From the NCBI RefSeq assembly GCF_030253515.1, contig NZ_CP124549.1, positions 180,001 to 212,000 of the forward strand: a stretch of DNA of 32,000 nucleotides. Reading direction: 5' to 3'. A program made the position numbers and the translations under genes. Positions within the stretch are counted from its first letter, which is position 1; each line of letters starts with the position of its first letter. Below are positions 9,404-20,834 of the stretch, one piece after another. The notes beneath the pieces were generated by a model, which worked only from the letters and a program-made list of their open reading frames with translations, did not search any database and was not told the origin of the DNA. Source of the stretch: Candidatus Nanosynbacter lyticus (lineage in GTDB: Bacteria; Patescibacteriota; Saccharimonadia; Saccharimonadales; Saccharimonadaceae).

Positions 9404-10572
9404 TGGAGCAAGAATCTCGTTCAGCTCAGCAACTCCAATCTCGACCGGGTGTGCCGCGTCGCAGGAAGCTAGCGCTGATTAGTGCTTGTGTCATCACGAT
9501 GCTATGGCTGATGGTTGGCTCGGCAGTGCTGGGTTCGTGGCTAACGACGCAGTTTAATAAACAGTCCATCCAGTCTACTCCTGATGGCAACCTCGTCATG
9601 TCGCGTGATGAAGCAGATATCAGCGAAGTTGTGCAGCGTGTGTCTAAGAGCGTGGTTTCGATCGTAACCACTAAGAATGGCCGGACATTGTCGCGTGCGA
9701 CAGTGCAGCAAGGTGCTGGTACAGGGATCATCATCAGTAAAGACGGTTATATTTTGACGAATAAACATGTCGTCAAGGACGCTGAAACCATCGAGATTAT
9801 GGGTAGTGACGGTACGCAGTATACGGATGTCAAGCTTGTTGGCGTTGATCCACTCAACGATGTGGCGTTTCTCAAGATCAATGGTGTGAATGACCTGCCG
9901 GCAGCCACGCTGGGTGACTCAAGCACTGTGCATGTTGGTCAGAAAGTAATTGCTATCGGTAATTCACTGGGTCGCTACCAGAACACCGTCACAACGGGCA
10001 TTATCTCGGGGAAGGGCCGACCAGTTCAGGCCTCTACTAGTGAATATAGCGACGAAGCCGAGAGTCTGACTGATCTACTTCAGACTGATGCTGCGATCAA
10101 TCCGGGTAACTCTGGCGGGCCGCTCCTCAATATGTCGGGCCAAGTTATTGGCATCAACACAGCGATCGTCTCGGATGCGCAGAGTGTGGGATTTGCAATT
10201 CCGATTGCCGCCACCAAGGGGTTGGTACGCAGTGTGCTGAGCTCTGGAAAAATTCAGAAATCATATATCGGCGTGCAATATATCGCGATTACCCCTGAAG
10301 TTCGTGCTGAGCATAAATTACCAGTCAAAAGCGGTGCCTATGTCGGCGGCTCGCGTCGCAAATCGGCGGTCGTCGCTGGCGGGCCAGCCGATAAAGCAGG
10401 CATCAAGGACGGCGATATCATTACCAAGGTAAATGATAAATTGATCGGCGAGCAGGGCGGTCTCGGCAGTCTTATCTCTGAGTTCTTGCCGGGCGAGACG
10501 GTAGAACTGACTATCCTGCGCGACGGCAAGGAACAGAAGGTCAAGCTAACGCTTGGCGCCTACAAGGCGTAG
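9403..10572 (+). CDS. HtrA/DegP-family trypsin-like serine protease with an N-terminal TM anchor and one PDZ domain
   Basis: Catalytic triad contexts TNKHVV, DVAFLKI and GNSGGPLLN. PDZ-like segment VVAGGPADKAGIKDGDIITKVN. Confidence 0.9.
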   Translation: MEQESRSAQQLQSRPGVPRRRKLALISACVITMLWLMVGSAVLGSWLTTQFNKQSIQSTPDGNLVMSRDEADISEVVQRVSKSVVSIVTTKNGRTLSRATVQQGAGTGIIISKDGYILTNKHVVKDAETIEIMGSDGTQYTDVKLVGVDPLNDVAFLKINGVNDLPAATLGDSSTVHVGQKVIAIGNSLGRYQNTVTTGIISGKGRPVQASTSEYSDEAESLTDLLQTDAAINPGNSGGPLLNMSGQVIGINTAIVSDAQSVGFAIPIAATKGLVRSVLSSGKIQKSYIGVQYIAITPEVRAEHKLPVKSGAYVGGSRRKSAVVAGGPADKAGIKDGDIITKVNDKLIGEQGGLGSLISEFLPGETVELTILRDGKEQKVKLTLGAYKA

Positions 10573-11370
10573 GACGATGATAAAGCCGCGCGTCTCTACC
10601 TCGTGAAGGCCGTGCTGCCTTGCTTGATGGAGAATTGCCTGGTGCTGTCGCGGGTCGGCTTCCAGAAAAAGCAGACCATCTGCCGTCAAGCGGCGCGGCG
10701 CTTGCTCAATCAGTGTCTCGATCAACCGCAGTCCATTATCCGCCGCAAATAATGCCTCGGCGGGTTCGTGACGTAGCTCTGGCGAAACATCCCAGTCCCG
10801 ATCAACATACGGCAGATTAGCAAAGATATAATCCACCGGCTCAATCTGCCCGGAAAGGAGCGATTGTTGCTGCAGCGTCACCCGCGCCTGTAAATTGCTC
10901 GCATTTTTCTCGGCAATTTTTATGGCTCGTGGACTAATATCCGATAAAATAACCCGCAGGGACGGCCGCTCTAGCGCCGCTGTAATGCCAAGGCAGCCCG
11001 AACCAGTGCCAATGTCAATCAGCGTCTTTGGCGCGATCTCACTGGCTGTCAGCGCTAAAAACAGGGTAATCATCTCCTCTGACTCCGGTCGTGGCACCAG
11101 GACAGCTGGCGAAACGGTAAATTTCCGTCCGTAAAATTCCTTATAGCCCAAAATATACGCCAGCGGTACTCGATCAAGGCGCAGGCTCAGCCTGGCGTCA
11201 GCAATATCAACTCGCCGCGGGTCAATCTCCTCATCCAGGTGCGCATGAAGGTACGTCCGGTTCTTCCGCAGAGTGTTAGCCAATATCAGCTCGGCGTCCA
11301 ACCGCGCCGACGCAACACCAATAGCTTTTAACTGTTTAGCGGCGTTCTTTAGCCAGGTTGCTATATTCAT
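10546..11370 (-). CDS. prmC: Release-factor glutamine N5-methyltransferase (PrmC/HemK)
   Basis: SAM-binding IDIGTGSGCLG. The catalytic-motif position reads FANLPYV (a variant of NPPY). It sits next to prfA apart from one inserted ORF. Confidence 0.85.
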   Translation of the reverse strand: MNIATWLKNAAKQLKAIGVASARLDAELILANTLRKNRTYLHAHLDEEIDPRRVDIADARLSLRLDRVPLAYILGYKEFYGRKFTVSPAVLVPRPESEEMITLFLALTASEIAPKTLIDIGTGSGCLGITAALERPSLRVILSDISPRAIKIAEKNASNLQARVTLQQQSLLSGQIEPVDYIFANLPYVDRDWDVSPELRHEPAEALFAADNGLRLIETLIEQAPRRLTADGLLFLEADPRQHQAILHQARQHGLHEVETRGFIIVLRLVGAKR

Positions 11371-11377
11371 GTTGTTA

Positions 11378-11383
11378 ATTATA
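11378..11383 (-). promoter_or_regulatory. -10 box TATAAT 7 nt upstream of the prmC ATG (candidate leaderless promoter)
   Basis: The minus strand reads gtagTATAATtaacaacATG. Confidence 0.45.
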
Positions 11384-11447
11384 CTACATAGCTAGGAATG
11401 AGTAAAGTGATTATGGTTGCAAAATAGCTATAAAGTTGTAAAAAGTA

Positions 11448-11477
11448 TTGACAAATCAAGAGAGAGAGTAATATAAG
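11448..11477 (+). promoter_or_regulatory. Promoter module copy A: TTGACAAATCAAGAGAGAGAGTAATATAAG
   Basis: Perfect -35 TTGACA at 11448-11453. The -10 candidates are TAATAT at 11469-11474 (15-nt spacer) or TATAAG at 11472-11477 (18-nt spacer). The first 16 nt are identical to the copy at 14701. Confidence 0.6.
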
Positions 11478-11515
11478 AAGCACACTAAGCATAATCAAGT
11501 AAAAAGGAATAAGTT

Positions 11516-12076
11516 GTGGATAGAAATAGGATTTCATCACCGGCGACATTAGAACATATGGATGAAGAGCGTGAGCCACGTATCGTCACCTATGAAAGCG
11601 GTGCTAGCGTATTAGTTCACGATGAGCCGGGTGATAGAGTGACTATCGGCACTGATGATAAATACTTTAGAGATCCTATGTTAAGTCGTGGTATGCTTTG
11701 TTTTGAGGCTATTCGTGATGATGGCGTTAGGGTTGAGTCTTATGTTACACCAGATGAGGTTGTGACTGCACGACACTATGATCACATGGTCGCGTATGAT
11801 GTGTATACACGCAACAATACCCGAGACGAGACGGCGATACTGGTACCAGTAGGCAATGATATACACGGACGGGAGTTCGTGATTGGTGAGGATATTACAG
11901 TAATTCCGGGGTATGCTCGTGGCGGTATGACGCTAAAATCCATTTCGGCGGAGTATAAATATGATATGGGTCGTCGTGATACCATAGAAGGCGAAAGTCC
12001 ATTTGAGACAATAAAACACAAAATTGAAAAGCAGCGACGGAATAGTAAACTTGGCTCGACTGCGCTAGGGGTATAA
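11516..12076 (+). CDS. Hypothetical protein, 186 aa (orphan O1)
   Basis: GTG start 7 nt after SD aagga (11504-11508). Soluble and acidic, with no motif I recognise. It lies antisense between prmC and prfA. Confidence 0.55.
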   Translation: MDRNRISSPATLEHMDEEREPRIVTYESGASVLVHDEPGDRVTIGTDDKYFRDPMLSRGMLCFEAIRDDGVRVESYVTPDEVVTARHYDHMVAYDVYTRNNTRDETAILVPVGNDIHGREFVIGEDITVIPGYARGGMTLKSISAEYKYDMGRRDTIEGESPFETIKHKIEKQRRNSKLGSTALGV

Positions 12077-12095
12077 TACTACTAGGTAGCTGATA

Positions 12096-13166
12096 CTATT
12101 TTTCGGCATTCTGCGCCTTCAACTCCCGCTCATATCGCTGCAATTGCTCAATCAAGTCGTCAATATCCCCGTTCATCGCCGCGGGGATATTGCTGCGGCT
12201 GTAGTGGACGCGGTGGTCGGTGATGCGGTCTTGCGGGAAGTTGTAGGTGCGAATCTTCTCTGAGCGGTCACCAGTACCAACGAGTGAGCGTCGTTCGGCA
12301 CTTAATTTGGCATTTTCCTCATCAATTTTCATCTGCAGCAAGCGCGAACGCAGCACGCTCATGGCTTTTTCGCGGTTCTTGATCTGTGATTTTTCATCTT
12401 GGTTAGTGACGACGATACCAGTTGGTAGGTGAGTGATGCGCACTGCCGAGTCGGTAGTATTGACGCTTTGGCCGCCATTGCCGCTGGAGCGGTAGATGTC
12501 AACGCGCAGGTCGCTTGGATTAATTTCAACGTCGGCTTCCTCGGCTTCTGGCAGCACCGCTACGGTGACGGTGGAGGTGTGGACGCGGCCTTGGCTTTCG
12601 GTGACTGGGACGCGCTGGACGCGGTGGACGCCGCCTTCAAATTTCAATTTGGCGTATGGCGCGTCGCCCTTGACCATGAAAATAACTTCTTTATAGCCGC
12701 CGGAGTCGTTGGCGGATTCGCTGATGAGCTCAGTTTTGTAGCCATTGGCTTCGCACCAGCGTAGGTACATGCGGTACAGTTCCGCCGCAAACAGCGATGC
12801 TTCGTCGCCACCAGCGCCAGCACGGATCTCTATGATGATGTTTTTCTCGTCGTTTGGATCTTTTGGCGTCAGTAGGATGAATAATTCTCCTTCCAGCTCT
12901 GACAGCCGCGCTTCAGTTTCAGTGATTTCGGCTTTTGCTAATTCTGCCAATTCGCCGCCGTCATTCGCTAATTCTTTGGCGTCACGCAGATTTTGCTCTA
13001 ATGCCACTCGCTCGTCGCCCTTGATAATAAGCGTCTCTAGCTCCGAGAACCGCTTATTTTTACTCGTGAAATCCGGCGAGCCATACGCGTCGGGACGCGC
13101 CAAAAAATCACCCAGCGTCGCCCGCTCCGCCTTCAACGCCTCGAGGTCAAGAGAGATTTTTGTCAT
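12096..13166 (-). CDS. prfA: Peptide chain release factor 1
   Basis: GGQ loop [11 protein letters not shown] and an RF1-type tripeptide context QRVPVTES (PxT). Length 356 aa. Confidence 0.95.
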
Positions 13167-13173
13167 ATGGATT

Positions 13174-13182
13174 ATTATAGCA
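13174..13182 (-). promoter_or_regulatory. Extended -10 TGcTATAAT 7 nt upstream of the prfA ATG (candidate leaderless promoter)
   Basis: The minus strand reads aaTATGcTATAATaatccatATG. Confidence 0.5.
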
Positions 13183-13238
13183 TATTGGTGGGGGACAGCG
13201 GGCCTACTAGTAAAATACTGATAATGGCGTAGGGATAC

Positions 13239-13267
13239 TTGACAAACAAAAGAAAATAGAGTAATAT
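13239..13267 (+). promoter_or_regulatory. Promoter module copy C: TTGACAAACAAAAGAAAATAGAGTAATAT
   Basis: TTGACA at 13239-13244, a 17-nt spacer, and TAATAT at 13262-13267. It shares TTGACAAA and AGAGTAATAT with the other copies. Confidence 0.6.
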
Positions 13268-13322
13268 GTAGACCATTAGTGCATCATATATTGCAGTAGC
13301 AAAGATAAGGAAAATAAAAAGT

Positions 13323-14093
13323 ATGGGCAAATTATTTCAATCAGCACGACGTATGATCAATGAAACCTTCGGGACAAACTTTGGGCGGGTGCGTAATGTC
13401 GAGAAGGCCTGGGAGATGGCACAAGAAGAAAATGCTGAACATGCACGCCGGCAGACAGAAAGGAAGTTAGCGAGTTTAGCCCTTGACGAGCCGCGCATAG
13501 CAGAACTAAAAAATGGCTCAGGTCTCCCGGAGACAAAGGTGGGGTCTCCTGAATTCATTGCTAAGATGTTTGAAAAGGCCGGTGAGTACATGTCAGACAA
13601 GGAGGGTGGTACCTCGACAGAGAAGTGGCTACCAATGATGTACGACCTTCCGTCTCTAGCTGAAGAGATGACAGTGAATCAGGTTTCGTGTTACGGTGAT
13701 TTTATTGCTAGGGGACCCAACGGTGGACCGATTATCGGTATGGTTGAGGAGCGTAGCGTTGGGGGTACGGATCATGATGCTCGGCGCGTTCGCACCTCAA
13801 CCGCTTATGATCCTACGACGGGCTTGATAAAGGAAGTTGAACTCACAAATCACCTAAAAAGGGAAAAGAATGGTCGCAGGTATACCGGTGATTATGAGGT
13901 GATAAAAACTGACGGTAAGATACGATGGATTTTGCCCGATGGTACTGTCGAATGTGTTGATACTGATGAAAATGGCGTGCGGCAACCAGGTACGTTGTAT
14001 CGGAGGGATGTGGGAGAGCTGGCGTATCTACGGAGACTCGAGTGCATGATGGAGCATTTTGATACCAAACCCGAAGCACCTAGTAAGGGTTAG
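13323..14093 (+). CDS. Hypothetical protein, 256 aa (orphan O2)
   Basis: ATG start with an A-rich leader and aagga about 13 nt upstream. It has a charged helical N-terminus and a Gly/Thr/Asp-rich C-terminal half, with no recognisable motif. It lies antisense between prfA and rpmE. Confidence 0.55.
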   Translation: MGKLFQSARRMINETFGTNFGRVRNVEKAWEMAQEENAEHARRQTERKLASLALDEPRIAELKNGSGLPETKVGSPEFIAKMFEKAGEYMSDKEGGTSTEKWLPMMYDLPSLAEEMTVNQVSCYGDFIARGPNGGPIIGMVEERSVGGTDHDARRVRTSTAYDPTTGLIKEVELTNHLKREKNGRRYTGDYEVIKTDGKIRWILPDGTVECVDTDENGVRQPGTLYRRDVGELAYLRRLECMMEHFDTKPEAPSKG

Positions 14094-14116
14094 TGTAAAA
14101 TTCAATGTAGTCTCAT

Positions 14117-14148
14117 CGTAATAGCTCCGCCTCGACGGAGCTATTACG
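14117..14148. terminator. Perfect 13-bp hairpin between the convergent O2 and rpmE genes (possible bidirectional terminator)
   Basis: CGTAATAGCTCCG (14117-14129) pairs with CGGAGCTATTACG (14136-14148) around a 6-nt loop. There is only a short T run (TT) after it, so termination efficiency is uncertain. Confidence 0.55.
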
Positions 14149-14177
14149 TTAATGTCAAAAATATTGATAAGTTGGGG

Positions 14178-14561
14178 CTATTTCTTAACCTTCTTAGTTT
14201 TTGCCTTAGGTGTAGCCGCTTTCTTCTTTGTGTCGTCTGTGTCATCTGCCGCCTTGGTGGCTTTTTTGGCGGCAGCTTTCTTGGCTTTGTTGGCTAGGGC
14301 TGTCTTGCGAGCCTGGGCGGCTGCTTGGCGTGCCTTAAACCGGTCAACACGACCTTCGGTGTCGATGATCTTTTCTTCGCCGGTGAAGAATGGGTGTGAG
14401 GCGCTGGAGATGTGCACCTTGACGAGCGGATAAGTTTTGCCATCTTCCCAAACGATGGTGTCCGTGGTTTGCGCTGTTGACTGAGTCAAGAACGCGAAGC
14501 CCGCTTGATCGTCGCTAAATACGACCGGGCGATAGTTCTGTGGGTGAATACTGCTTTTCAT
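14178..14561 (-). CDS. rpmE: 50S ribosomal protein L31, type B (no Cys zinc motif), with a ~45-aa Lys/Ala-rich C-terminal extension
   Basis: [15 protein letters not shown]...[24 protein letters not shown]...GRVDRF matches L31 type B. The tail reads [44 protein letters not shown]. Confidence 0.9.
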
Positions 14562-14570
14562 AACCTTGGT

Positions 14571-14579
14571 ATTTTAGCA
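14571..14579 (-). promoter_or_regulatory. Extended -10 TGcTAAAAT 9 nt upstream of the rpmE ATG
   Basis: The minus strand reads ttttTGcTAAAATaccaaggttATG. Confidence 0.45.
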
Positions 14580-14700
14580 AAAAAGTATGGGTATTGCAAA
14601 TATCACCACTAGTGCAGCTGCATACTGGAGCTATACTCGCCGTTCGGCAAGGGCCGCTCAACAATTATGCTTGTAAATCATCAAAAACATTGTAATGTAC

Positions 14701-14729
14701 TTGACAAATCAAGAGATAGAGAGTATAGT
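14701..14729 (+). promoter_or_regulatory. Promoter module copy B: TTGACAAATCAAGAGATAGAGAGTATAGT
   Basis: TTGACA at 14701-14706, a 17-nt spacer, and TATAGT at 14724-14729. It is followed by a leader with SD aaggag at 14751-14756 and ATG at 14766. Confidence 0.65.
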
Positions 14730-14765
14730 TGACTCCGATAGCTAAAAACCAAGGAGTTACACGAC

Positions 14766-15482
14766 ATGGATAAGGGAAGACAGCCAAATATTTGGGGTAG
14801 GCATAATCTCAACCAGTTGGCAGAGGAAGCGTTTCGGCGCAATGAGGAAAAAGAAAGGGCGCAGGCTGTTGGTGCAATACTAGATCGCCCCGACCGTAAT
14901 GAGGCAAATACTATAGGTTTTCTATCTAAGAACGCATTGTCGCGCCTTAGCTGGGCACTTGGAAGGGTTTTTGAGGTGAACTTAGCTTCTGGTTCTTGCG
15001 ATACTGTGAAGGTAAAGCTGTTTAATCCCCACGAACGTATCGTCGACAACTCTCTTGTCGTGCCAATGGAAGTAAATACTTCAGTTGTAGCGCTTGATGC
15101 CTACGGACCTGGTTCTGTTGGGAGAGATGGGTCAAAGGTTGGTTCGATCTTATTGTTTAAAGTAGCGGGAAACCTTATTAAGGAGCCGGCGCCAGGTATA
15201 ACTGCAAAGGACTTAGCGTGGGGTGAGAACTGTGTATTTGGTGCTTTTGTGGATGGCGACGCAATTAACTATTTTGAGATTGGTCAAACAAGTGGTGATG
15301 TCGTTCAGTCAGAGCTGCGCCGTAAGGATCCAACAGAGGAGAATGGTCAATCTGTCGAGATGCAGGTTGTGAAACCGGGGCAGGATCGACCTATTGTTCA
15401 AAAGCTCTCTTCTTCAAGCGATGAGGTCTTCGAGCTTGAGCAGGAGTTAGATAAGTTCATGGCGTCTCGCTCTGTTCAGTAA
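14766..15482 (+). CDS. Hypothetical protein, 238 aa (orphan O3)
   Basis: Good SD (aaggag, 9-nt spacing) and its own promoter. Soluble, with no recognisable motif. It lies between rpmE and rpsB. Confidence 0.6.
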   Translation: MDKGRQPNIWGRHNLNQLAEEAFRRNEEKERAQAVGAILDRPDRNEANTIGFLSKNALSRLSWALGRVFEVNLASGSCDTVKVKLFNPHERIVDNSLVVPMEVNTSVVALDAYGPGSVGRDGSKVGSILLFKVAGNLIKEPAPGITAKDLAWGENCVFGAFVDGDAINYFEIGQTSGDVVQSELRRKDPTEENGQSVEMQVVKPGQDRPIVQKLSSSSDEVFELEQELDKFMASRSVQ

Positions 15483-15486
15483 CGGA

Positions 15487-15515
15487 TTGCTTTTGGTGTC
15501 GACTCGTGTTAAAAT
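15487..15515 (+). promoter_or_regulatory. rpsB-tsf promoter: TTGCTT-17 nt-TAAAAT with extended -10 (TGtTAAAAT)
   Basis: TTGCTT at 15487-15492 and TGtTAAAAT at 15507-15515. Confidence 0.55.
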
Positions 15516-15542
15516 GACGAGGTAACTAAATATAACGACACA

Positions 15543-15570
15543 GCCCGTCGCAGCTCCAAAAGCGGCGGGC
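15543..15570 (+). promoter_or_regulatory. Stem-loop in the rpsB 5' leader (candidate S2 autoregulatory element)
   Basis: GCCCGTCGC (15543-15551) pairs with GCGGCGGGC (15562-15570): 9 bp including one G-U pair, with a 10-nt loop. It ends 7 nt before SD aaggag (15578-15583). Confidence 0.3.
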
Positions 15571-15590
15571 GAGGAAAAAGGAGTAATCTA

Positions 15591-16319
15591 ATGTCTGTAA
15601 CAGTAGACATGAAAGCTTTGTTTGAAGCTGGTGTTCATTTCGGGCACAAAACCAGTCGCTGGCACCCAAAGATGGCGCCATACATCCATTCAAAACGCCA
15701 GGATAGCCATATCATTGATTTGGCAAAGACAGCTGAGGCGCTAGAGAAGGCGCTGCCGGAGCTGACAAAAATCGCCGCTAGCGGTAAGAAGGTACTGTTC
15801 GTCGGTACGAAAAAGCAAGCTAAGGACGTGGTGCGCCAGGCGGCCGAGAGCATCAATCAGCCGTACGTGGTTGAGCGCTGGATCGGCGGTATGCTGACCA
15901 ACGGCGCAACAATCGCTCAGCAGATCAAGAAACTGAAGAACCTCGAGAAGCGGATGGCGTCGGGCGATCTGGAGAAGCGCTACAACAAGCTAGAGGTGCA
16001 GCGTTTCCAGGAGGAAATTGACAACCTGAATTTCAAGTACGGCGGTATTAAGAACTTGATGGGCAAGCCAGGCGCAGTGGTCGTGGTTGACGCACTGACC
16101 GATGCAAACGCAGTGCGCGAGGCGGAAGCCCTGGGCATCCCAGTATTTGCCGTGGTTGATACCAATGTCAATCCAACGGGCATCGACTATGTCATCCCGG
16201 GCAATGATGATGCGATCAAGAGCATCCAGCAGCTGCTTGACTACTTCACGGCAGCGGTAGCCGAGGGCGCGGGTAGCGTGAAGGCTGAAGAAAAACCAGT
16301 GAAAAAAGAGGAGAAATAG
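15591..16319 (+). CDS. rpsB: 30S ribosomal protein S2
   Basis: AGVHFGHKTSRWHPKM and ERWIGGMLTN motifs. Length 242 aa. Confidence 0.96.
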   Translation: MSVTVDMKALFEAGVHFGHKTSRWHPKMAPYIHSKRQDSHIIDLAKTAEALEKALPELTKIAASGKKVLFVGTKKQAKDVVRQAAESINQPYVVERWIGGMLTNGATIAQQIKKLKNLEKRMASGDLEKRYNKLEVQRFQEEIDNLNFKYGGIKNLMGKPGAVVVVDALTDANAVREAEALGIPVFAVVDTNVNPTGIDYVIPGNDDAIKSIQQLLDYFTAAVAEGAGSVKAEEKPVKKEEK

Positions 16320-16917: not shown

Positions 16918-17003
16918 CTCTGAGCTTATTCGGGTGTCGTTCATATCTAGCTAGACCCCTGGTGCTAGCATATTGATCCGTAAGGGTGTTAAGATTTTAT
17001 GTG

Positions 17004-17032
17004 TTGACGATATATTAAATCTGTGATAGTAT
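17004..17032 (+). promoter_or_regulatory. Promoter of the O4-O5 operon: TTGACG-17 nt-TAGTAT with extended -10 (TGaTAGTAT)
   Basis: TTGACG at 17004-17009 and TGaTAGTAT at 17024-17032. The -10 context GATAGTATA resembles GAGAGTATA of module copy B. Confidence 0.55.
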
Positions 17033-17087
17033 AAAGCACAGGATTAACTACAGTGATATTAAAACATATGAAGAATATGAGGTCTGT

Positions 17088-18488
17088 ATGCATAAAATGA
17101 GCCCTGAAAAAACACCCCACATTGGCCACATGATTGATGGGTGGGGGAGCCTCTCTGAAAAAGGGGCAGACTCTATTACTCCTAAACAGGATGGCCGTAA
17201 TGGGGTGATGGCTATTGAGACGACCACCGATAAAAATAATCGAAAGTTTGCAGAAATTCCTGGGTATAAAGAGATCCGCCGACAGATTATCGATAGTAAT
17301 GTATCTCATTCAGGGGAAACGGACGACTGGAGCGCTGCTGTGTTACCAGAGAGTAAGACTCAAGGATGGGTTGATCCGTTTGAGCAAACACCAGGTGGTC
17401 GTCGAGAGGCTTTGACAAAACGAATTGTTGGTGGCCTGAAGGGCTTAGGAGAAAAACTATCAAATCATGGCGGAGCGGCAAAGAGAAAGATTGGTGAAGT
17501 ATTCAATAAGGCAGCTGAGACTGGGAAGAGTCTAAAAGAGACTATCGATCAGGCTGCTCAGAGTGCTAAGGAGCGTCGTGCTGAACGCCGTCAGCAACGC
17601 GAGGAGGTTCGCAAGAACCGTGAAAATGAGTTGGCTACAAAAAGGCAGGAGCGTCAGGAGCGAACTCGGAAGCGCAAAGAGGCGGCAGGCGAACGCCGCA
17701 AGGCAGCCAGGAATGACAGAAAAGCTGAAGTTGAGGATTTGCGAAAAAGGGCTGGACTCAGAGAAGAGATTGTAGCCGTAGAAGGTAAGCAGAGGGGTGC
17801 TGATACAGAAATCGCTGAAACGAAAGCAGAGATTGAAGCAATGTCGAGTGGCGAACTGGCGAGCGCATTTGAACGGCTCACGGCGGCACGTGAGGCGTAC
17901 GAGAGCAGTAGACACCCAGTTGGTTCTCTCGAAAATAAACAACTGGCGTTAGCAGAAAGCATAGCAGAAAGTGCATGGCGAGTCGCCAGCGGTCAAGTCG
18001 AGATGCTCAAGCTTAGCTTGCAAGAGCTTGAGATGAAACGGCAAGGTCTTGAGAGTCAGCGCCAAGAGGCTCTTGATAAGATTCGTGAGATAAATGAGCA
18101 GCGAGGTGAGCGCATAACGGCTGCCAAAGAAAGGAAGGCGGCACGCCGCGCGGCGCGCCGGGAAAAGTGGGCCGCCGTGAAGGGAGCGGTTGATGATGGT
18201 TTTGAGTCTGTTGGTGAACGGGTTAGTGCTGCCGCTGATCGATTAGATGAGGTGGCTGGTCGTGCGACCGAGCGAATCGGTGAGATGCGTACTATCGCAG
18301 CGCAGCGACTGCGGGATATCGGTAGCTACCTATCACGTCCGTTTGCTTTCATGGGGCGTAAGACAAAAGAAACGCTCACGGCAACAGGTGACTTCACCCG
18401 ACGGTTCGGCAGGGCAGCGGTTGCAGGTCATATAGCGTTCACACAGGAGATGCAAAACCCGAATTCTAATGTAGGTGATAGAGTCTAA
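17088..18488 (+). CDS. Hypothetical 466-aa protein with a long Glu/Arg/Lys-rich helical (coiled-coil or single-alpha-helix-like) core (orphan O4)
   Basis: SD gagg lies 5 nt upstream. The central stretch reads ERRAERRQQREEVRKNRENELATKRQERQERTRKRKEAAGERRKAARNDRKAEVEDLRKR, followed by further Ala/Glu/Arg/Leu-rich helical sequence. There is no TM segment, signal peptide or catalytic motif. Confidence 0.6.
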   Translation: MHKMSPEKTPHIGHMIDGWGSLSEKGADSITPKQDGRNGVMAIETTTDKNNRKFAEIPGYKEIRRQIIDSNVSHSGETDDWSAAVLPESKTQGWVDPFEQTPGGRREALTKRIVGGLKGLGEKLSNHGGAAKRKIGEVFNKAAETGKSLKETIDQAAQSAKERRAERRQQREEVRKNRENELATKRQERQERTRKRKEAAGERRKAARNDRKAEVEDLRKRAGLREEIVAVEGKQRGADTEIAETKAEIEAMSSGELASAFERLTAAREAYESSRHPVGSLENKQLALAESIAESAWRVASGQVEMLKLSLQELEMKRQGLESQRQEALDKIREINEQRGERITAAKERKAARRAARREKWAAVKGAVDDGFESVGERVSAAADRLDEVAGRATERIGEMRTIAAQRLRDIGSYLSRPFAFMGRKTKETLTATGDFTRRFGRAAVAGHIAFTQEMQNPNSNVGDRV

Positions 18489-18572
18489 TCCTAACGAGAT
18501 AAATAGTAGGCAACTTGTTGAGGAAATTGATACGACGGTTGAGATAACTAATAAAATAAAAAAGGATAGTTT

Positions 18573-18935
18573 ATGAATAACGACAATACACCACAGGTTA
18601 ATCTTGATGAAGCGTTGATTACGGTCGGTCGGCTACGAGAGATGGGTATTAATCTGCCAGAACAGCAATTGCAAGAGTTGGCTGTTCACGTGCAAGATAC
18701 GATTAATGAGCGGATTGGCGAGGAGGCTGTAGAGTCTCTAACAGGTGAACAGCTGGAAGAATTAATCACAATGCAGGATAATGGTGCACCGGGCGATCAG
18801 ATTAGTGAGTGGTTGCGTACACGAGTACCGGATTACGAGCAAATAGTTGAAGATAATACTATGATTGTACTTGGCGAAGTCGCCGATGACATTGATGCAA
18901 TTCAACAACCAAAACCTGAAGCCGAGCGAGAGTGA
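18573..18935 (+). CDS. Small acidic protein, 120 aa (orphan O5), possibly related to the Patescibacteria DUF5663 family
   Basis: The pattern LPEQQLQELAVHVQDTINERIGEEAVESLTGEQLEELITMQD...ISEWLRTRVPDYEQIV resembles DUF5663-type proteins as I recall them, but this has not been searched. It is probably co-transcribed with O4. Confidence 0.5.
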   Translation: MNNDNTPQVNLDEALITVGRLREMGINLPEQQLQELAVHVQDTINERIGEEAVESLTGEQLEELITMQDNGAPGDQISEWLRTRVPDYEQIVEDNTMIVLGEVADDIDAIQQPKPEAERE

Positions 18936-18967
18936 ATAATATCGTCACGCTTAGCTTAGCATAATAC

Positions 18968-18991
18968 ATCCCGCCAAAATGGCGGGATTTT
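18968..18991. terminator. Hairpin terminator between the convergent O5 and recF genes
   Basis: ATCCCGCCA (18968-18976) pairs with TGGCGGGAT (18980-18988), followed by TTTT on the + strand. The T run overlaps the recF stop codon. Confidence 0.7.
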
Positions 18992-20045
18992 AGCGCGTTG
19001 AGACTATCAAACAATCATCCCTCTGGTGGCGGGCGTCAGTGGTGGTGACGATGAATTGATGATGTTGGATGGTCTCTTGGAGGAGCTTTTCGCGAGTGGC
19101 ATCTAGTTCAGAAAACACATCATCCAGGAGGATGAGCGGCCGTGATTGACTGATTTTCGTTTGCAGTTCCAGCTCGAGCAGCTTGAAAGCCAGCATAATG
19201 GTGCGCATTTCGCCGCGCGAGGCGACTTTGATGGCCGGCTGGCTGTGGAGGAAAATCGTAAAATCCTCGCGGTGTGGGCCGGCCGAAGTATGGCCTGTAG
19301 CGATCTCATAGTCGCGAGCACGCTGTAGGCGGTCGAGAAGTGCTTGTTCGTATCGATCAAGCGATGTACTGGCTTGATAGGTGGCTGCAAAAGCTGTTTC
19401 GTGTCCCGCCAGCGCTGCATATAAACTACTCAGCGCCGCCTCGTGTTTAGCTAGGAATGTGGCACGGGCTTGGGCAATGTGGGTCGCTAACTGGACGAAC
19501 TTAATATCCCAGGCAAAGAGATGATCACGCCAGTTTTGGGTCGTCTCGCGGGGGTGTTTGAGTAGTTCATTGCGCTGCAGCAAGGTTCGATGAAAGGCAC
19601 GGAGCGTGGCTTCGTATTGAGCATCCAGCCGAGATAATATACCGTCCAGAAAATCCCGCCGCCGCGATGGCGAGGAAGAGATGAGTCGTAGCTCGCTCGG
19701 TTCAAACAGAACGACCGGCAGGCGATGTTTGCGGGGGAGGAGCTTGCTGCGACTATCGTTAATCGTGAACTCTTTATTTATCGTGCCGTCGGCTGTGCGG
19801 AGCAGCTGGAGGCGCCGAGAGGCATTGTCGGTTTCGAGGTGGATGATGGTTTGCGTTTGGTCGTGCTGCATGCAATCAGCAAGGCTGCCACGAAAGCTGC
19901 TGCCGCGGAGGGCGACGTATATCGCTTCGAGCAAGTTTGTCTTGCCGGTGCCGTTTGGTCCAACGATGACGGTGCCACCTGGCGCCAGTGTCGTCTCATA
20001 GAGGCCATAGGAGCGAAAATGATATAGCTTAATGTGTGTTATCAC
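18990..20045 (-). CDS. recF: DNA replication and repair protein RecF
   Basis: The N-terminus IKLYHFRSY, Walker A GPNGTGKTNLLEA, signature ASRGEMRT, and Walker B LILLDDVFSELD. GTG start. Confidence 0.9.
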   Translation of the reverse strand: MITHIKLYHFRSYGLYETTLAPGGTVIVGPNGTGKTNLLEAIYVALRGSSFRGSLADCMQHDQTQTIIHLETDNASRRLQLLRTADGTINKEFTINDSRSKLLPRKHRLPVVLFEPSELRLISSSPSRRRDFLDGILSRLDAQYEATLRAFHRTLLQRNELLKHPRETTQNWRDHLFAWDIKFVQLATHIAQARATFLAKHEAALSSLYAALAGHETAFAATYQASTSLDRYEQALLDRLQRARDYEIATGHTSAGPHREDFTIFLHSQPAIKVASRGEMRTIMLAFKLLELELQTKISQSRPLILLDDVFSELDATREKLLQETIQHHQFIVTTTDARHQRDDCLIVSTR

Positions 20046-20053
20046 TGATGATA

Positions 20054-20062
20054 ATTATATCA
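20054..20062 (-). promoter_or_regulatory. Extended -10 TGaTATAAT 8 nt upstream of the recF GTG. Its TGA is the stop codon of O6.
   Basis: The minus strand reads gcgTGaTATAATtatcatcaGTG. Confidence 0.45.
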
Positions 20063-20713
20063 CGCGGCTTCTGGCGGGGTTAGTTCCGCATAGGGATCGG
20101 CTACCCGTCGGAGATTTTTTTGATCCTCTGGATTGATGAGTTCTGGATGAGAGAGAATGCTGTGTTTGATGTGGGTTTCATGCAGCGAAAGTGGACGTTG
20201 CATGTTTCTATATTCGGGCGGTAGGTCTTGCTCGCTACCACTAGTAATATCGTTTTCGATGACACATTCCCATGTGTCGGGCGCGCTCTCGATGAGCTCG
20301 ACATGGTGAGTGCCGGTGACGCCCAGGTAATCAATAGGTACTGGCGGAAATTCGATGGTTGCTCGTGGTGTTTCTGGGTGCTCCTCCATATACCAGACTT
20401 CCGCGCGGCGGACGGTGAATTCCTGTCCCTCGTATCTAACTTTTACGGTCTTGAAGCCGTCGGAGCGTTCTTTGTCGGCATCAAGAGTGTCGTTGTTTTC
20501 AGCGGCGATCACGGTAGCCTCATCAAAGAATTGATTACTCTCGTCTTGGTCGCCTGGTGTTTTCACGTCGCCAGTAGGCTCGTTGATACCATCCGGGAGA
20601 TTACCGTAAAGGTCTGCATTATAGCCACTGTTGCGTGCTGCAATTTCCTCAGGGTTAAGCGGCGGCTCTTTCGTCTCATCAGTTCGCTTTAGTCGCTCAA
20701 TATCGTAGGCCAT
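20060..20713 (-). CDS. Hypothetical acidic protein, 217 aa (orphan O6)
   Basis: It has its own promoter (next feature). The N-terminal third is Pro/Asp/Glu-rich and low in complexity, followed by a likely globular C-terminal part. No recognisable motif. Confidence 0.55.
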   Translation of the reverse strand: MAYDIERLKRTDETKEPPLNPEEIAARNSGYNADLYGNLPDGINEPTGDVKTPGDQDESNQFFDEATVIAAENNDTLDADKERSDGFKTVKVRYEGQEFTVRRAEVWYMEEHPETPRATIEFPPVPIDYLGVTGTHHVELIESAPDTWECVIENDITSGSEQDLPPEYRNMQRPLSLHETHIKHSILSHPELINPEDQKNLRRVADPYAELTPPEAA

Positions 20714-20750
20714 CTTCTAAGTTTCTGTTTAGTTATACGTTAACGTTTTG

Positions 20751-20779
20751 ATTTTAGCATGAATGTTTGGATAAGTCAA
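20751..20779 (-). promoter_or_regulatory. O6 promoter: TTGACT-17 nt-TAAAAT with extended -10 (TGcTAAAAT)
   Basis: The minus strand reads cTTGACTtatccaaacattcaTGcTAAAAT, followed by a ~30-nt leader. Confidence 0.55.
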
Positions 20780-20801
20780 GCAGACAACCTTGCCACTAGT
20801 C

Positions 20802-20810
20802 TGTTATAAT
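20802..20810 (+). promoter_or_regulatory. Extended -10 TGtTATAAT for frr
   Basis: Sequence reads tcTGtTATAATgg, followed by a leader with SD gggagg before ATG 20835. Confidence 0.5.
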
Positions 20811-20834
20811 GGATGACAGATAACGGGAGGAAAT

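Follow-up and report, generated by a model that had tools for sequence, protein, structure and literature searches.

The 32,000-nucleotide stretch of DNA of Candidatus Nanosynbacter lyticus, a tiny parasitic bacterium of the mouth (Saccharibacteria), analysed here (the window; contig NZ_CP124549.1, positions 180,001 to 212,000) carries three plus-strand genes, O1, O2 and O3, interleaved with the minus-strand translation genes prmC, prfA and rpmE. This is seen directly from the listing of its open reading frames (ORFs). The promoters of O1 and O3 contain a simple-sequence repeat, (GA)nG, exactly between the -35 and -10 boxes (positions 11448-11474 and 14701-14729), and 64 instances of the same arrangement were observed in relatives. 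Among close relatives the repeat number is hypervariable relative to the flanks, as is characteristic of contingency promoters. We lean towards the reading that these are contingency loci, that is, slipped-strand phase-variable promoters driving fast-evolving accessory genes in exchangeable slots. The repeat tract had escaped an earlier note on this DNA, made from the letters of the sequence, and is in our view the most informative feature of the locus.

Slot 1 is bounded by prmC (release-factor glutamine methyltransferase, 10546-11370, minus strand, Pfam PrmC_N and MTS) and prfA (release factor RF1, 12096-13166, minus strand, Pfam PCRF and RF-1). Its cargo in the window is O1 (11516-12076, plus strand, 186 amino acids, GTG start, WLD46581.1), an acidic soluble orphan protein. 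The prfA gene is convergent with O1 and divergent from O2 (13323-14093, plus strand, 256 amino acids, WLD46583.1), the orphan cargo of slot 2. Then follow rpmE (ribosomal protein L31, 14178-14561, minus strand, Pfam Ribosomal_L31) and the orphan O3 (14766-15482, plus strand, 238 amino acids, WLD46585.1), which occupies slot 3 in nearly all relatives. The right flank of slot 3 is rpsB (15591-16319, plus strand), with its own promoter-like site and a structured leader. O1, O2 and O3 are all annotated by NCBI as 'hypothetical protein' [Candidatus Nanosynbacter lyticus]. The earlier note had described this layout; the coordinates matched, and the identities of PrmC, RF1 and L31 were borne out by Pfam. 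It was also right that each junction holds one lineage-specific gene of no known family with a promoter of its own, and thus the housekeeping genes are expected to be transcribed separately. The prfA and prmC genes are usually co-transcribed, and the usual gene between rpmE and prfA in Firmicutes is tdk. No thymidine kinase match to O2 was found in Pfam or NCBIfam. Scanning the window for Rfam families and tRNAs gave no hits.

All three genes are preceded by a perfect TTGACA -35 box, a leader of 36-55 nucleotides and the Shine-Dalgarno sequence AAGGA(G), so that an earlier claim to this effect was upheld by sequence scans. The pattern TTGACA-N15-19-TAWNAT has three matches against 0.15 expected, and two of them are the promoters of O1 and O2. 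The -10 box of O3, TATAGT, falls outside this pattern, and the O3 promoter comes from a separate scan. The slot 1 promoter driving O1, TTGACAAATCAAGAGAGAGAGTAATAT (11448-11474, plus strand), consists of the -35 box TTGACA (11448-53), AATCAA, a pure (GA)4G tract (11460-68) and the -10 box TAATAT (11469-74), the spacer being 15 bp. The slot 3 promoter driving O3, TTGACAAATCAAGAGATAGAGAGTATAGT (14701-14729, plus strand), has the same -35 box (14701-06) and AATCAA, an interrupted tract GAGATAGAGAG (14713-23) and TATAGT (14724-29), with a spacer of 17 bp. The slot 2 promoter (13239-13267, plus strand) has TTGACA and TAATAT separated by an A-rich, non-repeat spacer of 17 bp.

One module, TTGACAAATCAA(GA)nG followed by the -10 box, is present in two copies, as the promoters of slots 1 and 3. 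Its consensus is TTGA(C/T)AAATCAA-(GA)nG-TA(A/T)TA(T/G/A)(T/C), and in some slot 1 copies the -35 box is TTGATA. The exact 16-mer TTGACAAATCAAGAGA occurs twice in the window, in the slot 1 promoter (at 11448) and in the slot 3 promoter, against 0.2 occurrences expected. It was found in 22 of 26 loci, whichever cargo follows, including relatives whose prmC is only 42-70% identical. When metagenomes were scanned for the 16-mer, most hits were chance matches in unrelated organisms, and only about 14 loci came from Saccharibacteria. The (GA)n module is also present in far Saccharibacteria loci, namely L126 (prmC 42% identical), L058 (prfA 68% identical) and L088. It is therefore either old or mobile, and other genes in these genomes may be marked by it as switchable. 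At L058 the slot 2 position carries a pure (GA)4 module; thus the O2 promoter of the window may be a decayed copy of the module. The interrupted tract GAGATAGAGAG of the window slot 3 recurs in the slot 1 promoters of L010, L011, L021 and L056, which points to gene conversion of one module copy by the other, or else to recurrent mutation.

We tabulated 64 promoter instances in relatives of the window, 53 with pure and 11 with interrupted tracts. The pure tracts have n from 3 to 8, with spacers of 13 (12 instances), 15 (12), 17 (12), 19 (10), 21 (6) and 23 bp (1). The interrupted tracts have spacers of 17 (8), 18 (2) and 15 bp (1). Spacers of 16-18 bp are seen in 10 of 11 interrupted tracts versus 12 of 53 pure ones (Fisher's test for interrupted against pure tracts, p=0.0025 for spacer 17 and p=3.7e-5 for spacers 16-18, shared ancestry being ignored). 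Such a bias would be expected if freezing of the tract is tolerated mainly at optimal spacing.

Loci with 100% identical 150-nucleotide flanks differ in n: L001-3 (n=3) and L095 (n=5), L074 (n=4) and L100 (n=5), L004 (n=5) and L100 (n=6). The slot 3 repeat number differs in 12 of 20 close pairs. Ten contigs encode identical O3, and six of these, with 100% identical 200-nucleotide flanks at slot 1, carry n=3, 6, 7 or 8 there. At slot 3, (GA)3 is invariant in all ten and in four further contigs encoding P0090 (14 contigs). Tracts with n of at least 6 are variable among near-identical strains, and the window O1 tract has only n=4. Variability of long tracts together with invariance of (GA)3 would fit the length dependence expected if the tracts slip. 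The same n was found in independent assemblies of one lineage (L024 and L025; L157-L160), which argues against assembly noise. Dinucleotide repeats of at least five units in 387 kb of related loci are all situated at slot 1 or slot 3 promoters. The repeat states of slots 1 and 3 are uncorrelated across genomes, which argues for independent stochastic switching and not for co-regulation. Hence the earlier description of O1-O3 as a co-regulated gene set did not survive: slots 1 and 3 have the module in common, but its repeat length varies independently.

The following mechanism can be proposed for human-associated G1 Saccharibacteria, in which O1, O2 and O3 occupy three accessory-gene slots wedged among prmC, prfA, rpmE and rpsB. 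Each slot has its own sigma-70-type promoter. Slipped-strand mispairing would alter the GA-tract spacer in 2-bp steps, from 13 to 23 bp, and the change of spacing would cause a stochastic, heritable rise or fall of promoter activity (phase or rheostat variation), independently at each slot, and would probably serve as bet-hedging. Such changes would be reversible within a clone. Point mutations interrupting the tract would freeze the spacer, usually at the 17-18 bp optimum. In the window, O1 behind the pure (GA)4 tract with spacer 15 is probably weakly expressed and still switchable, O3 behind the interrupted tract with spacer 17 is probably locked on, and O2 behind its non-repeat 17-bp spacer is predicted to be constitutive. 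Taken with the cargo exchange described below, the locus would amount to two switchable expression sites at fixed positions, whose cargo can be replaced.

An alternative that we consider unlikely is that O1-O3 are ordinary lineage-specific genes with constitutive promoters, and that the differences in GA length are neutral microsatellite drift with no regulatory effect. The near-even spread of pure-tract spacers over 13-19 bp, with no concentration at 17, fits drift, as does the intact O3 in lineages fixed at spacer 13. However, the -35 box, the -10 box and AATCAA are retained in relatives whose prmC is only 42-70% identical and in which the downstream coding sequence has been replaced. Further, 53 of the 64 tracts are still pure, unlike the expectation of neutral decay, and the interrupted ones cluster at 17-18 bp. 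Finally, at each of two or three independent sites it is precisely the spacer that contains the tract, and all long dinucleotide repeats in the 387 kb are at these promoters.

Several points weigh against phase-variable promoters. ON/OFF switching is deduced from assembled sequence alone. Many genomes with spacers of 13 or 21 bp, where a near-dead promoter is expected, keep an intact O3, for example the lineage fixed at (GA)3; thus either the mapping of spacer to activity is not simple, or another promoter contributes. Tracts of (GA)3-4 are short for efficient slippage, and shared ancestry is not taken into account in the Fisher tests. Judging by their sequences, the products appear to be cytoplasmic, unlike the surface proteins typical of classical contingency loci. 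Lastly, the cargo has no matches among known sequences, PDB entries, viral proteins or defence models, and the structural model of O2 is fragile.

The closest known system, and the classical example of a contingency locus whose promoter spacer bears a repeat, is the hifA/hifB fimbrial promoter of Haemophilus influenzae, which has (TA)9-11 between the -35 and -10 boxes (van Ham et al. 1993, as summarised in PMC2651432). In both cases a dinucleotide repeat occupies the promoter spacer, 2-bp steps change the -35/-10 spacing, and strains differ in repeat number. Both also have interrupted, frozen alleles, (TA)4ATTA in hif and GAGATAGAGAG here. On the other hand, the unit here is GA, and two or three neighbouring sites carry duplicates of a single unidirectional module. 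Instead of fimbriae, the cargo consists of soluble orphan proteins that are themselves replaceable and belong to a Patescibacterium. For hif, both the switching and the resulting change of expression have been demonstrated, whereas here we infer them from sequence. Other promoters switched by a tract in the spacer are those of Mycoplasma mycoides Vmm, with (TA)n, M. hyorhinis vlp, with poly(A), and Neisseria porA and opc, with homopolymers. These have ON, intermediate and OFF states, are found in reduced or host-adapted genomes, and drive surface lipoproteins or porins that have signal peptides; O1 and O3, in contrast, have no signal peptide.

The gene order prmC(-), ORF(+), prfA(-), ORF(+), rpmE(-), ORF(+), rpsB(+) was observed in 20 of 20 loci representing Saccharibacteria species and in additional loci from metagenomes, so that the interleaving seen in the window is kept across the group. 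The cargo is less stable. BLASTP clustering gave at least four unrelated families in slot 1 and at least two in slot 2; slot 3 holds an O3 homolog in every locus. The occupants of slot 1 are O1, an unrelated family of 140 amino acids, an unrelated family of 180-230 amino acids, and other ORFs, including HExxH proteins. The 140-residue family is found in the closest relatives, whose PrmC is 93-98% identical at the amino acid level, and O1 is missing from L004 despite a prmC identity of 97.8%. Slot 2 is occupied by O2 (two subtypes), by an unrelated family of 205 amino acids, or by multi-gene inserts that include uracil-DNA glycosylase (UDG). The combination of cargoes is mosaic: in L100, O2 is 98% identical to that of the window, but slot 1 holds the 140-residue family.

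The boundaries of the replaced segments are sharp. At slot 1, DNA homology extends from prmC through the promoter, is lost just past the -10 box and returns at the stop codon of prfA. At slot 2 it extends from the promoter through codon 37 of O2, breaks, and resumes at the rpmE stop. The second O2 subtype has codons 1-37 in common with the first and is about 35% identical overall. Codons 1-37 (13323-13433 in the window, 7530-7640 in L005; also in L007) are nearly identical between subtypes that are otherwise about 30% identical. The abrupt break could be a recombination edge within the ORF or the end of a conserved N-terminal module. Each slot 2 variant has its own terminator hairpin, and the alternative O2 subtype carries a different hairpin in the same place. 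In the window, the junction between the convergent O2 and rpmE folds into a hairpin with a stem of 12-13 bp (14118-14147), probably a bidirectional terminator belonging to the cassette.

The most plausible route for the exchange of cargo in slots 1 and 2 would be natural transformation with double crossover within the highly conserved housekeeping genes on either side. Indeed, Saccharibacteria are naturally competent, and double-crossover recombination with flanks of about 1 kb has been shown experimentally (PMC10633639), which makes this the simplest candidate route. Slot 1 is empty in Southlakia epibionticum ML1, prmC being adjacent to prfA (PMC10633639). According to Tables S1 and S2 of that paper, several hypothetical genes are found in the remaining two gaps, together with UDG and a transposase-like gene, and most of these gap genes are without structure-based annotation. 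Among the gap genes, SEML1_0191-0194 and 0199-0201 are all scored as non-essential by transposon sequencing (Tn-seq; PMC10633639 Table S1). The inserted genes had earlier been taken for lineage-specific insertions, one per junction. They are indeed lineage-specific and one per junction, but the insertion was not a one-off event, as slots 1 and 2 have been recurrently exchanged and slot 1 is empty in S. epibionticum ML1.

The architecture has parallels in two other kinds of system. In capsule-locus switching of naturally competent bacteria, a hotspot of accessory genes is exchanged by flanking homology. The slots resemble it in that core genes flank non-homologous alternative cargo, the breakpoints are sharp, and the bacteria are naturally competent (PMC10633639). 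They differ in that each slot has a single small gene, the resident, conserved, repeat-containing promoter stays outside the exchanged DNA, and the prfA-prmC unit in which the slots lie is usually co-transcribed. A resident promoter serving interchangeable promoterless cargo recalls the concept of integrons. However, no integrase was found among the genes neighbouring the slots, attC-like repeats were not seen there, although no search was aimed at attC, and each slot holds one cargo; thus the exchange is most simply explained by homologous recombination.

There is a slim chance that the slots are instead integration hotspots for mobile or defence DNA, O1-O3 being horizontally acquired single-gene anti-phage or addiction functions and the repeat secondary. 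The strain-variable cargo and the G+C and GC3 (G+C at third codon positions), which are lower than in the flanks, agree with this, as do further genes found at these positions in other genomes, namely a transposase-like gene, UDG, adenylate-cyclase fragments and genes for HExxH proteins. The neighbouring tsf-frr gap, moreover, has a variable AAA_15/AAA_21/SMC_N ATPase of a type found in defence systems. Nevertheless, O1-O3 have no match in PADLOC, PHROG, phage genomes or IMG/VR, the slots show neither an integrase nor an att-like repeat nor a tRNA, and O3 is vertically conserved across the clade. A hotspot is compatible with the switch, the two not being mutually exclusive.

Some alternative occupants deserve mention. 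The HExxH motif (LRHELCHVKD) is present in certain slot 1 occupants, such as those at 1243-1761 of L008 and 3576-4676 of L022. They have a weak match to the Peptidase_M91 'effector protein' family (E=0.022) and may be metalloprotease effectors. The 205-residue slot 2 family (6822-7421 of L001, and 14 other loci) has a conserved terminal LQGDGAHRLCAAKMRG motif that recalls ParB/sulfiredoxin-type DGxHR sites; the family has no Pfam or PDB profile match. In two more distant genomes, L022 (5785-8380) and S. epibionticum (SEML1_0191-0197), the prfA-rpmE gap has grown to several genes, UDG among them; in S. epibionticum a class IV adenylate cyclase, which is split, and the transposase-like gene are also found in this gap.

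Another strain-variable region is the gap between tsf and frr (16918-20834 in the window; also in L001-L003 and L024-L026). In the window it contains a coiled-coil ORF of 466 amino acids (17088-18488), a DUF5663 protein (18573-18935), an SMC_N/AAA_15/AAA_21/AAA_23 ATPase (18990-20045, minus strand) and an unassigned ORF of 217 amino acids (20060-20713, minus strand). In relatives this gap holds small ORFs, a truncated ATPase or the full ATPase. ATPases of this type are common in anti-phage systems.

O1, O2 and O3 are genuine genes. The 21 homologs of O1 are at least 80% identical to it and without exception lie between prmC and prfA; none occurs in the 20 species-representative loci. O2 has 14 homologs, with identity down to 34%, and O3 has more than 211, down to 47%. 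All these homologs come from metagenome-assembled genomes of Saccharibacteria or from human metagenomes. The ratio of non-synonymous to synonymous substitution rates (dN/dS; Nei-Gojobori, the window versus two relatives) is 0.34-0.43 for O1, 0.26-0.37 for O2 and 0.26-0.41 for O3, as compared with 0.00-0.12 for prmC, prfA, rpmE, rpsB and tsf. Thus the calculation that the earlier note had called for shows purifying selection (0.26-0.43), and yet O1-O3 evolve 3-10 times faster than their neighbours. Their G+C content is 45.1% (O1), 49.0% (O2) and 47.3% (O3) versus 52-54% in the flanking genes, and their GC3 is 0.37-0.47 versus 0.56-0.66 in the housekeeping genes; for O1 the computed value agrees with a low G+C previously tallied by hand. 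The proteins are acidic and hydrophilic and have no transmembrane segment or signal peptide, as had been stated before (maximum KD19 of 0.46-1.22).

The absence of recognisable domains and the atypical composition might be taken to mean that O1-O3 are spurious ORFs in non-coding spacers. This is effectively refuted by conservation over the full length in dozens to hundreds of genomes and by dN/dS well below 1: genes so conserved and under purifying selection are not spurious. In addition, Shine-Dalgarno sequences and promoters are present, the ORFs are annotated as proteins by NCBI, and the AlphaFold2 (AF2) models are compact. O3 is nevertheless dispensable or decaying in some genomes, as it is split in two ORFs in L022 (9001-9743) and L023 (3149-3804), and has internal deletions of 9-25 amino acids in several lineages (e.g. 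9001-9690 of L009). No link between promoter state and pseudogenisation of O3 was observed, the two split copies having spacers of 17 (L022) and 13 bp (L023).

It is very improbable that transcription itself is the product, directed convergently into prfA (from O1) or rpmE (from O2) or reading through to rpsB-tsf (from O3), and tuning translation factors, with the ORFs incidental. Only 19 nucleotides with a weak hairpin (12077-12095) separate the O1 stop from the prfA stop, and thus transcripts from the O1 promoter may run antisense into prfA; furthermore, a promoter facing a housekeeping gene is retained whatever the cargo. However, dN/dS of 0.26-0.43 reflects selection on proteins, a strong hairpin follows O2, rpsB is equipped with a promoter-like site of its own, and in S. 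epibionticum slot 1 does not exist.

The searches for families and folds were negative. O1-O3 have no significant match in Pfam, NCBIfam, PHROGs or PADLOC, which agrees with the earlier statement that no motif could be assigned, and the same four collections gave nothing significant for nine alternative slot occupants. Profile searches of PDB sequences with O1, O2, O3 and two alternative cargo families produced no match. No phage or IMG/VR relatives of O1-O3 were found, and a phage or viral origin was rejected on this ground. A match of O2 to phrog_3874, 'transglycosylase' (3.7e-5), was rejected too, as it was seen in only 2 of 13 members of the O2 family. In an exhaustive HMMER search of 1.84 billion representative proteins, the O2 profile recovered the two subtypes, three fragments and one repeat-junk match; the family has only 6 representatives there.

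The AF2 model of O3 has pLDDT 73 and pTM 0.68. The best O2 model has pLDDT 70, the remaining four of five being at 46-50. Neither O2 nor O3 models have a significant fold match in PDB or among viral structures (BFVD). Considered by element order alone, both models appear to run from N-terminal helices through an antiparallel sheet to a C-terminal helix. The weak similarity of the O2 and O3 N-termini, earlier offered as a hint of distant paralogy, was not reproduced: BLASTP gave nothing, and the hhalign probability was 0.3%. Paralogy among O1, O2 and O3 was rejected generally, with no BLASTP matches and hhalign probabilities of 0.3%, 4% and 0.1%. Of the homology, profile and structure comparisons suggested previously, those against known families and folds thus left the orphan status of O1-O3 intact, and those among the three proteins spoke against paralogy.

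The promoter-repeat switch itself is of a known kind. What appears new is its occurrence in Patescibacteria, the duplication of the GA module at adjacent sites in a translation-gene cluster, and its pairing with replaceable orphan cargo. Searches of the open-access PMC and bioRxiv literature for phase variation mediated by repeats in Saccharibacteria or Patescibacteria turned up no report. The role of the cargo can be guessed to be strain-specific interaction with the host bacterium or with phage, and O1-O3 and the alternative cargo are prime candidates for such functions. A broader proposal, which we hold as speculative, is that Saccharibacteria, and hence Patescibacteria, use repeat-driven phase variation, and that conserved (GA)n expression sites lying amid essential translation genes, with orphan cargo recombined by transformation, would generate a stochastic, strain-specific repertoire governing interaction with the host bacterium or phage resistance. 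O3 would then be a conserved, switchable factor of new fold, central to this lifestyle.

Patescibacteria form a large share of bacterial diversity, and almost nothing is known about gene regulation and host adaptation in these ultrasmall epibionts. The switch, if true, would provide a concrete and testable regulatory mechanism in the cultivable and genetically tractable Saccharibacteria, for which transformation and reporters exist (PMC10633639). The GA repeat number is a simple genotype that can be read from existing metagenomes. Finally, the switchable slots would account for the splitting of the usually co-transcribed prfA-prmC pair in this clade.

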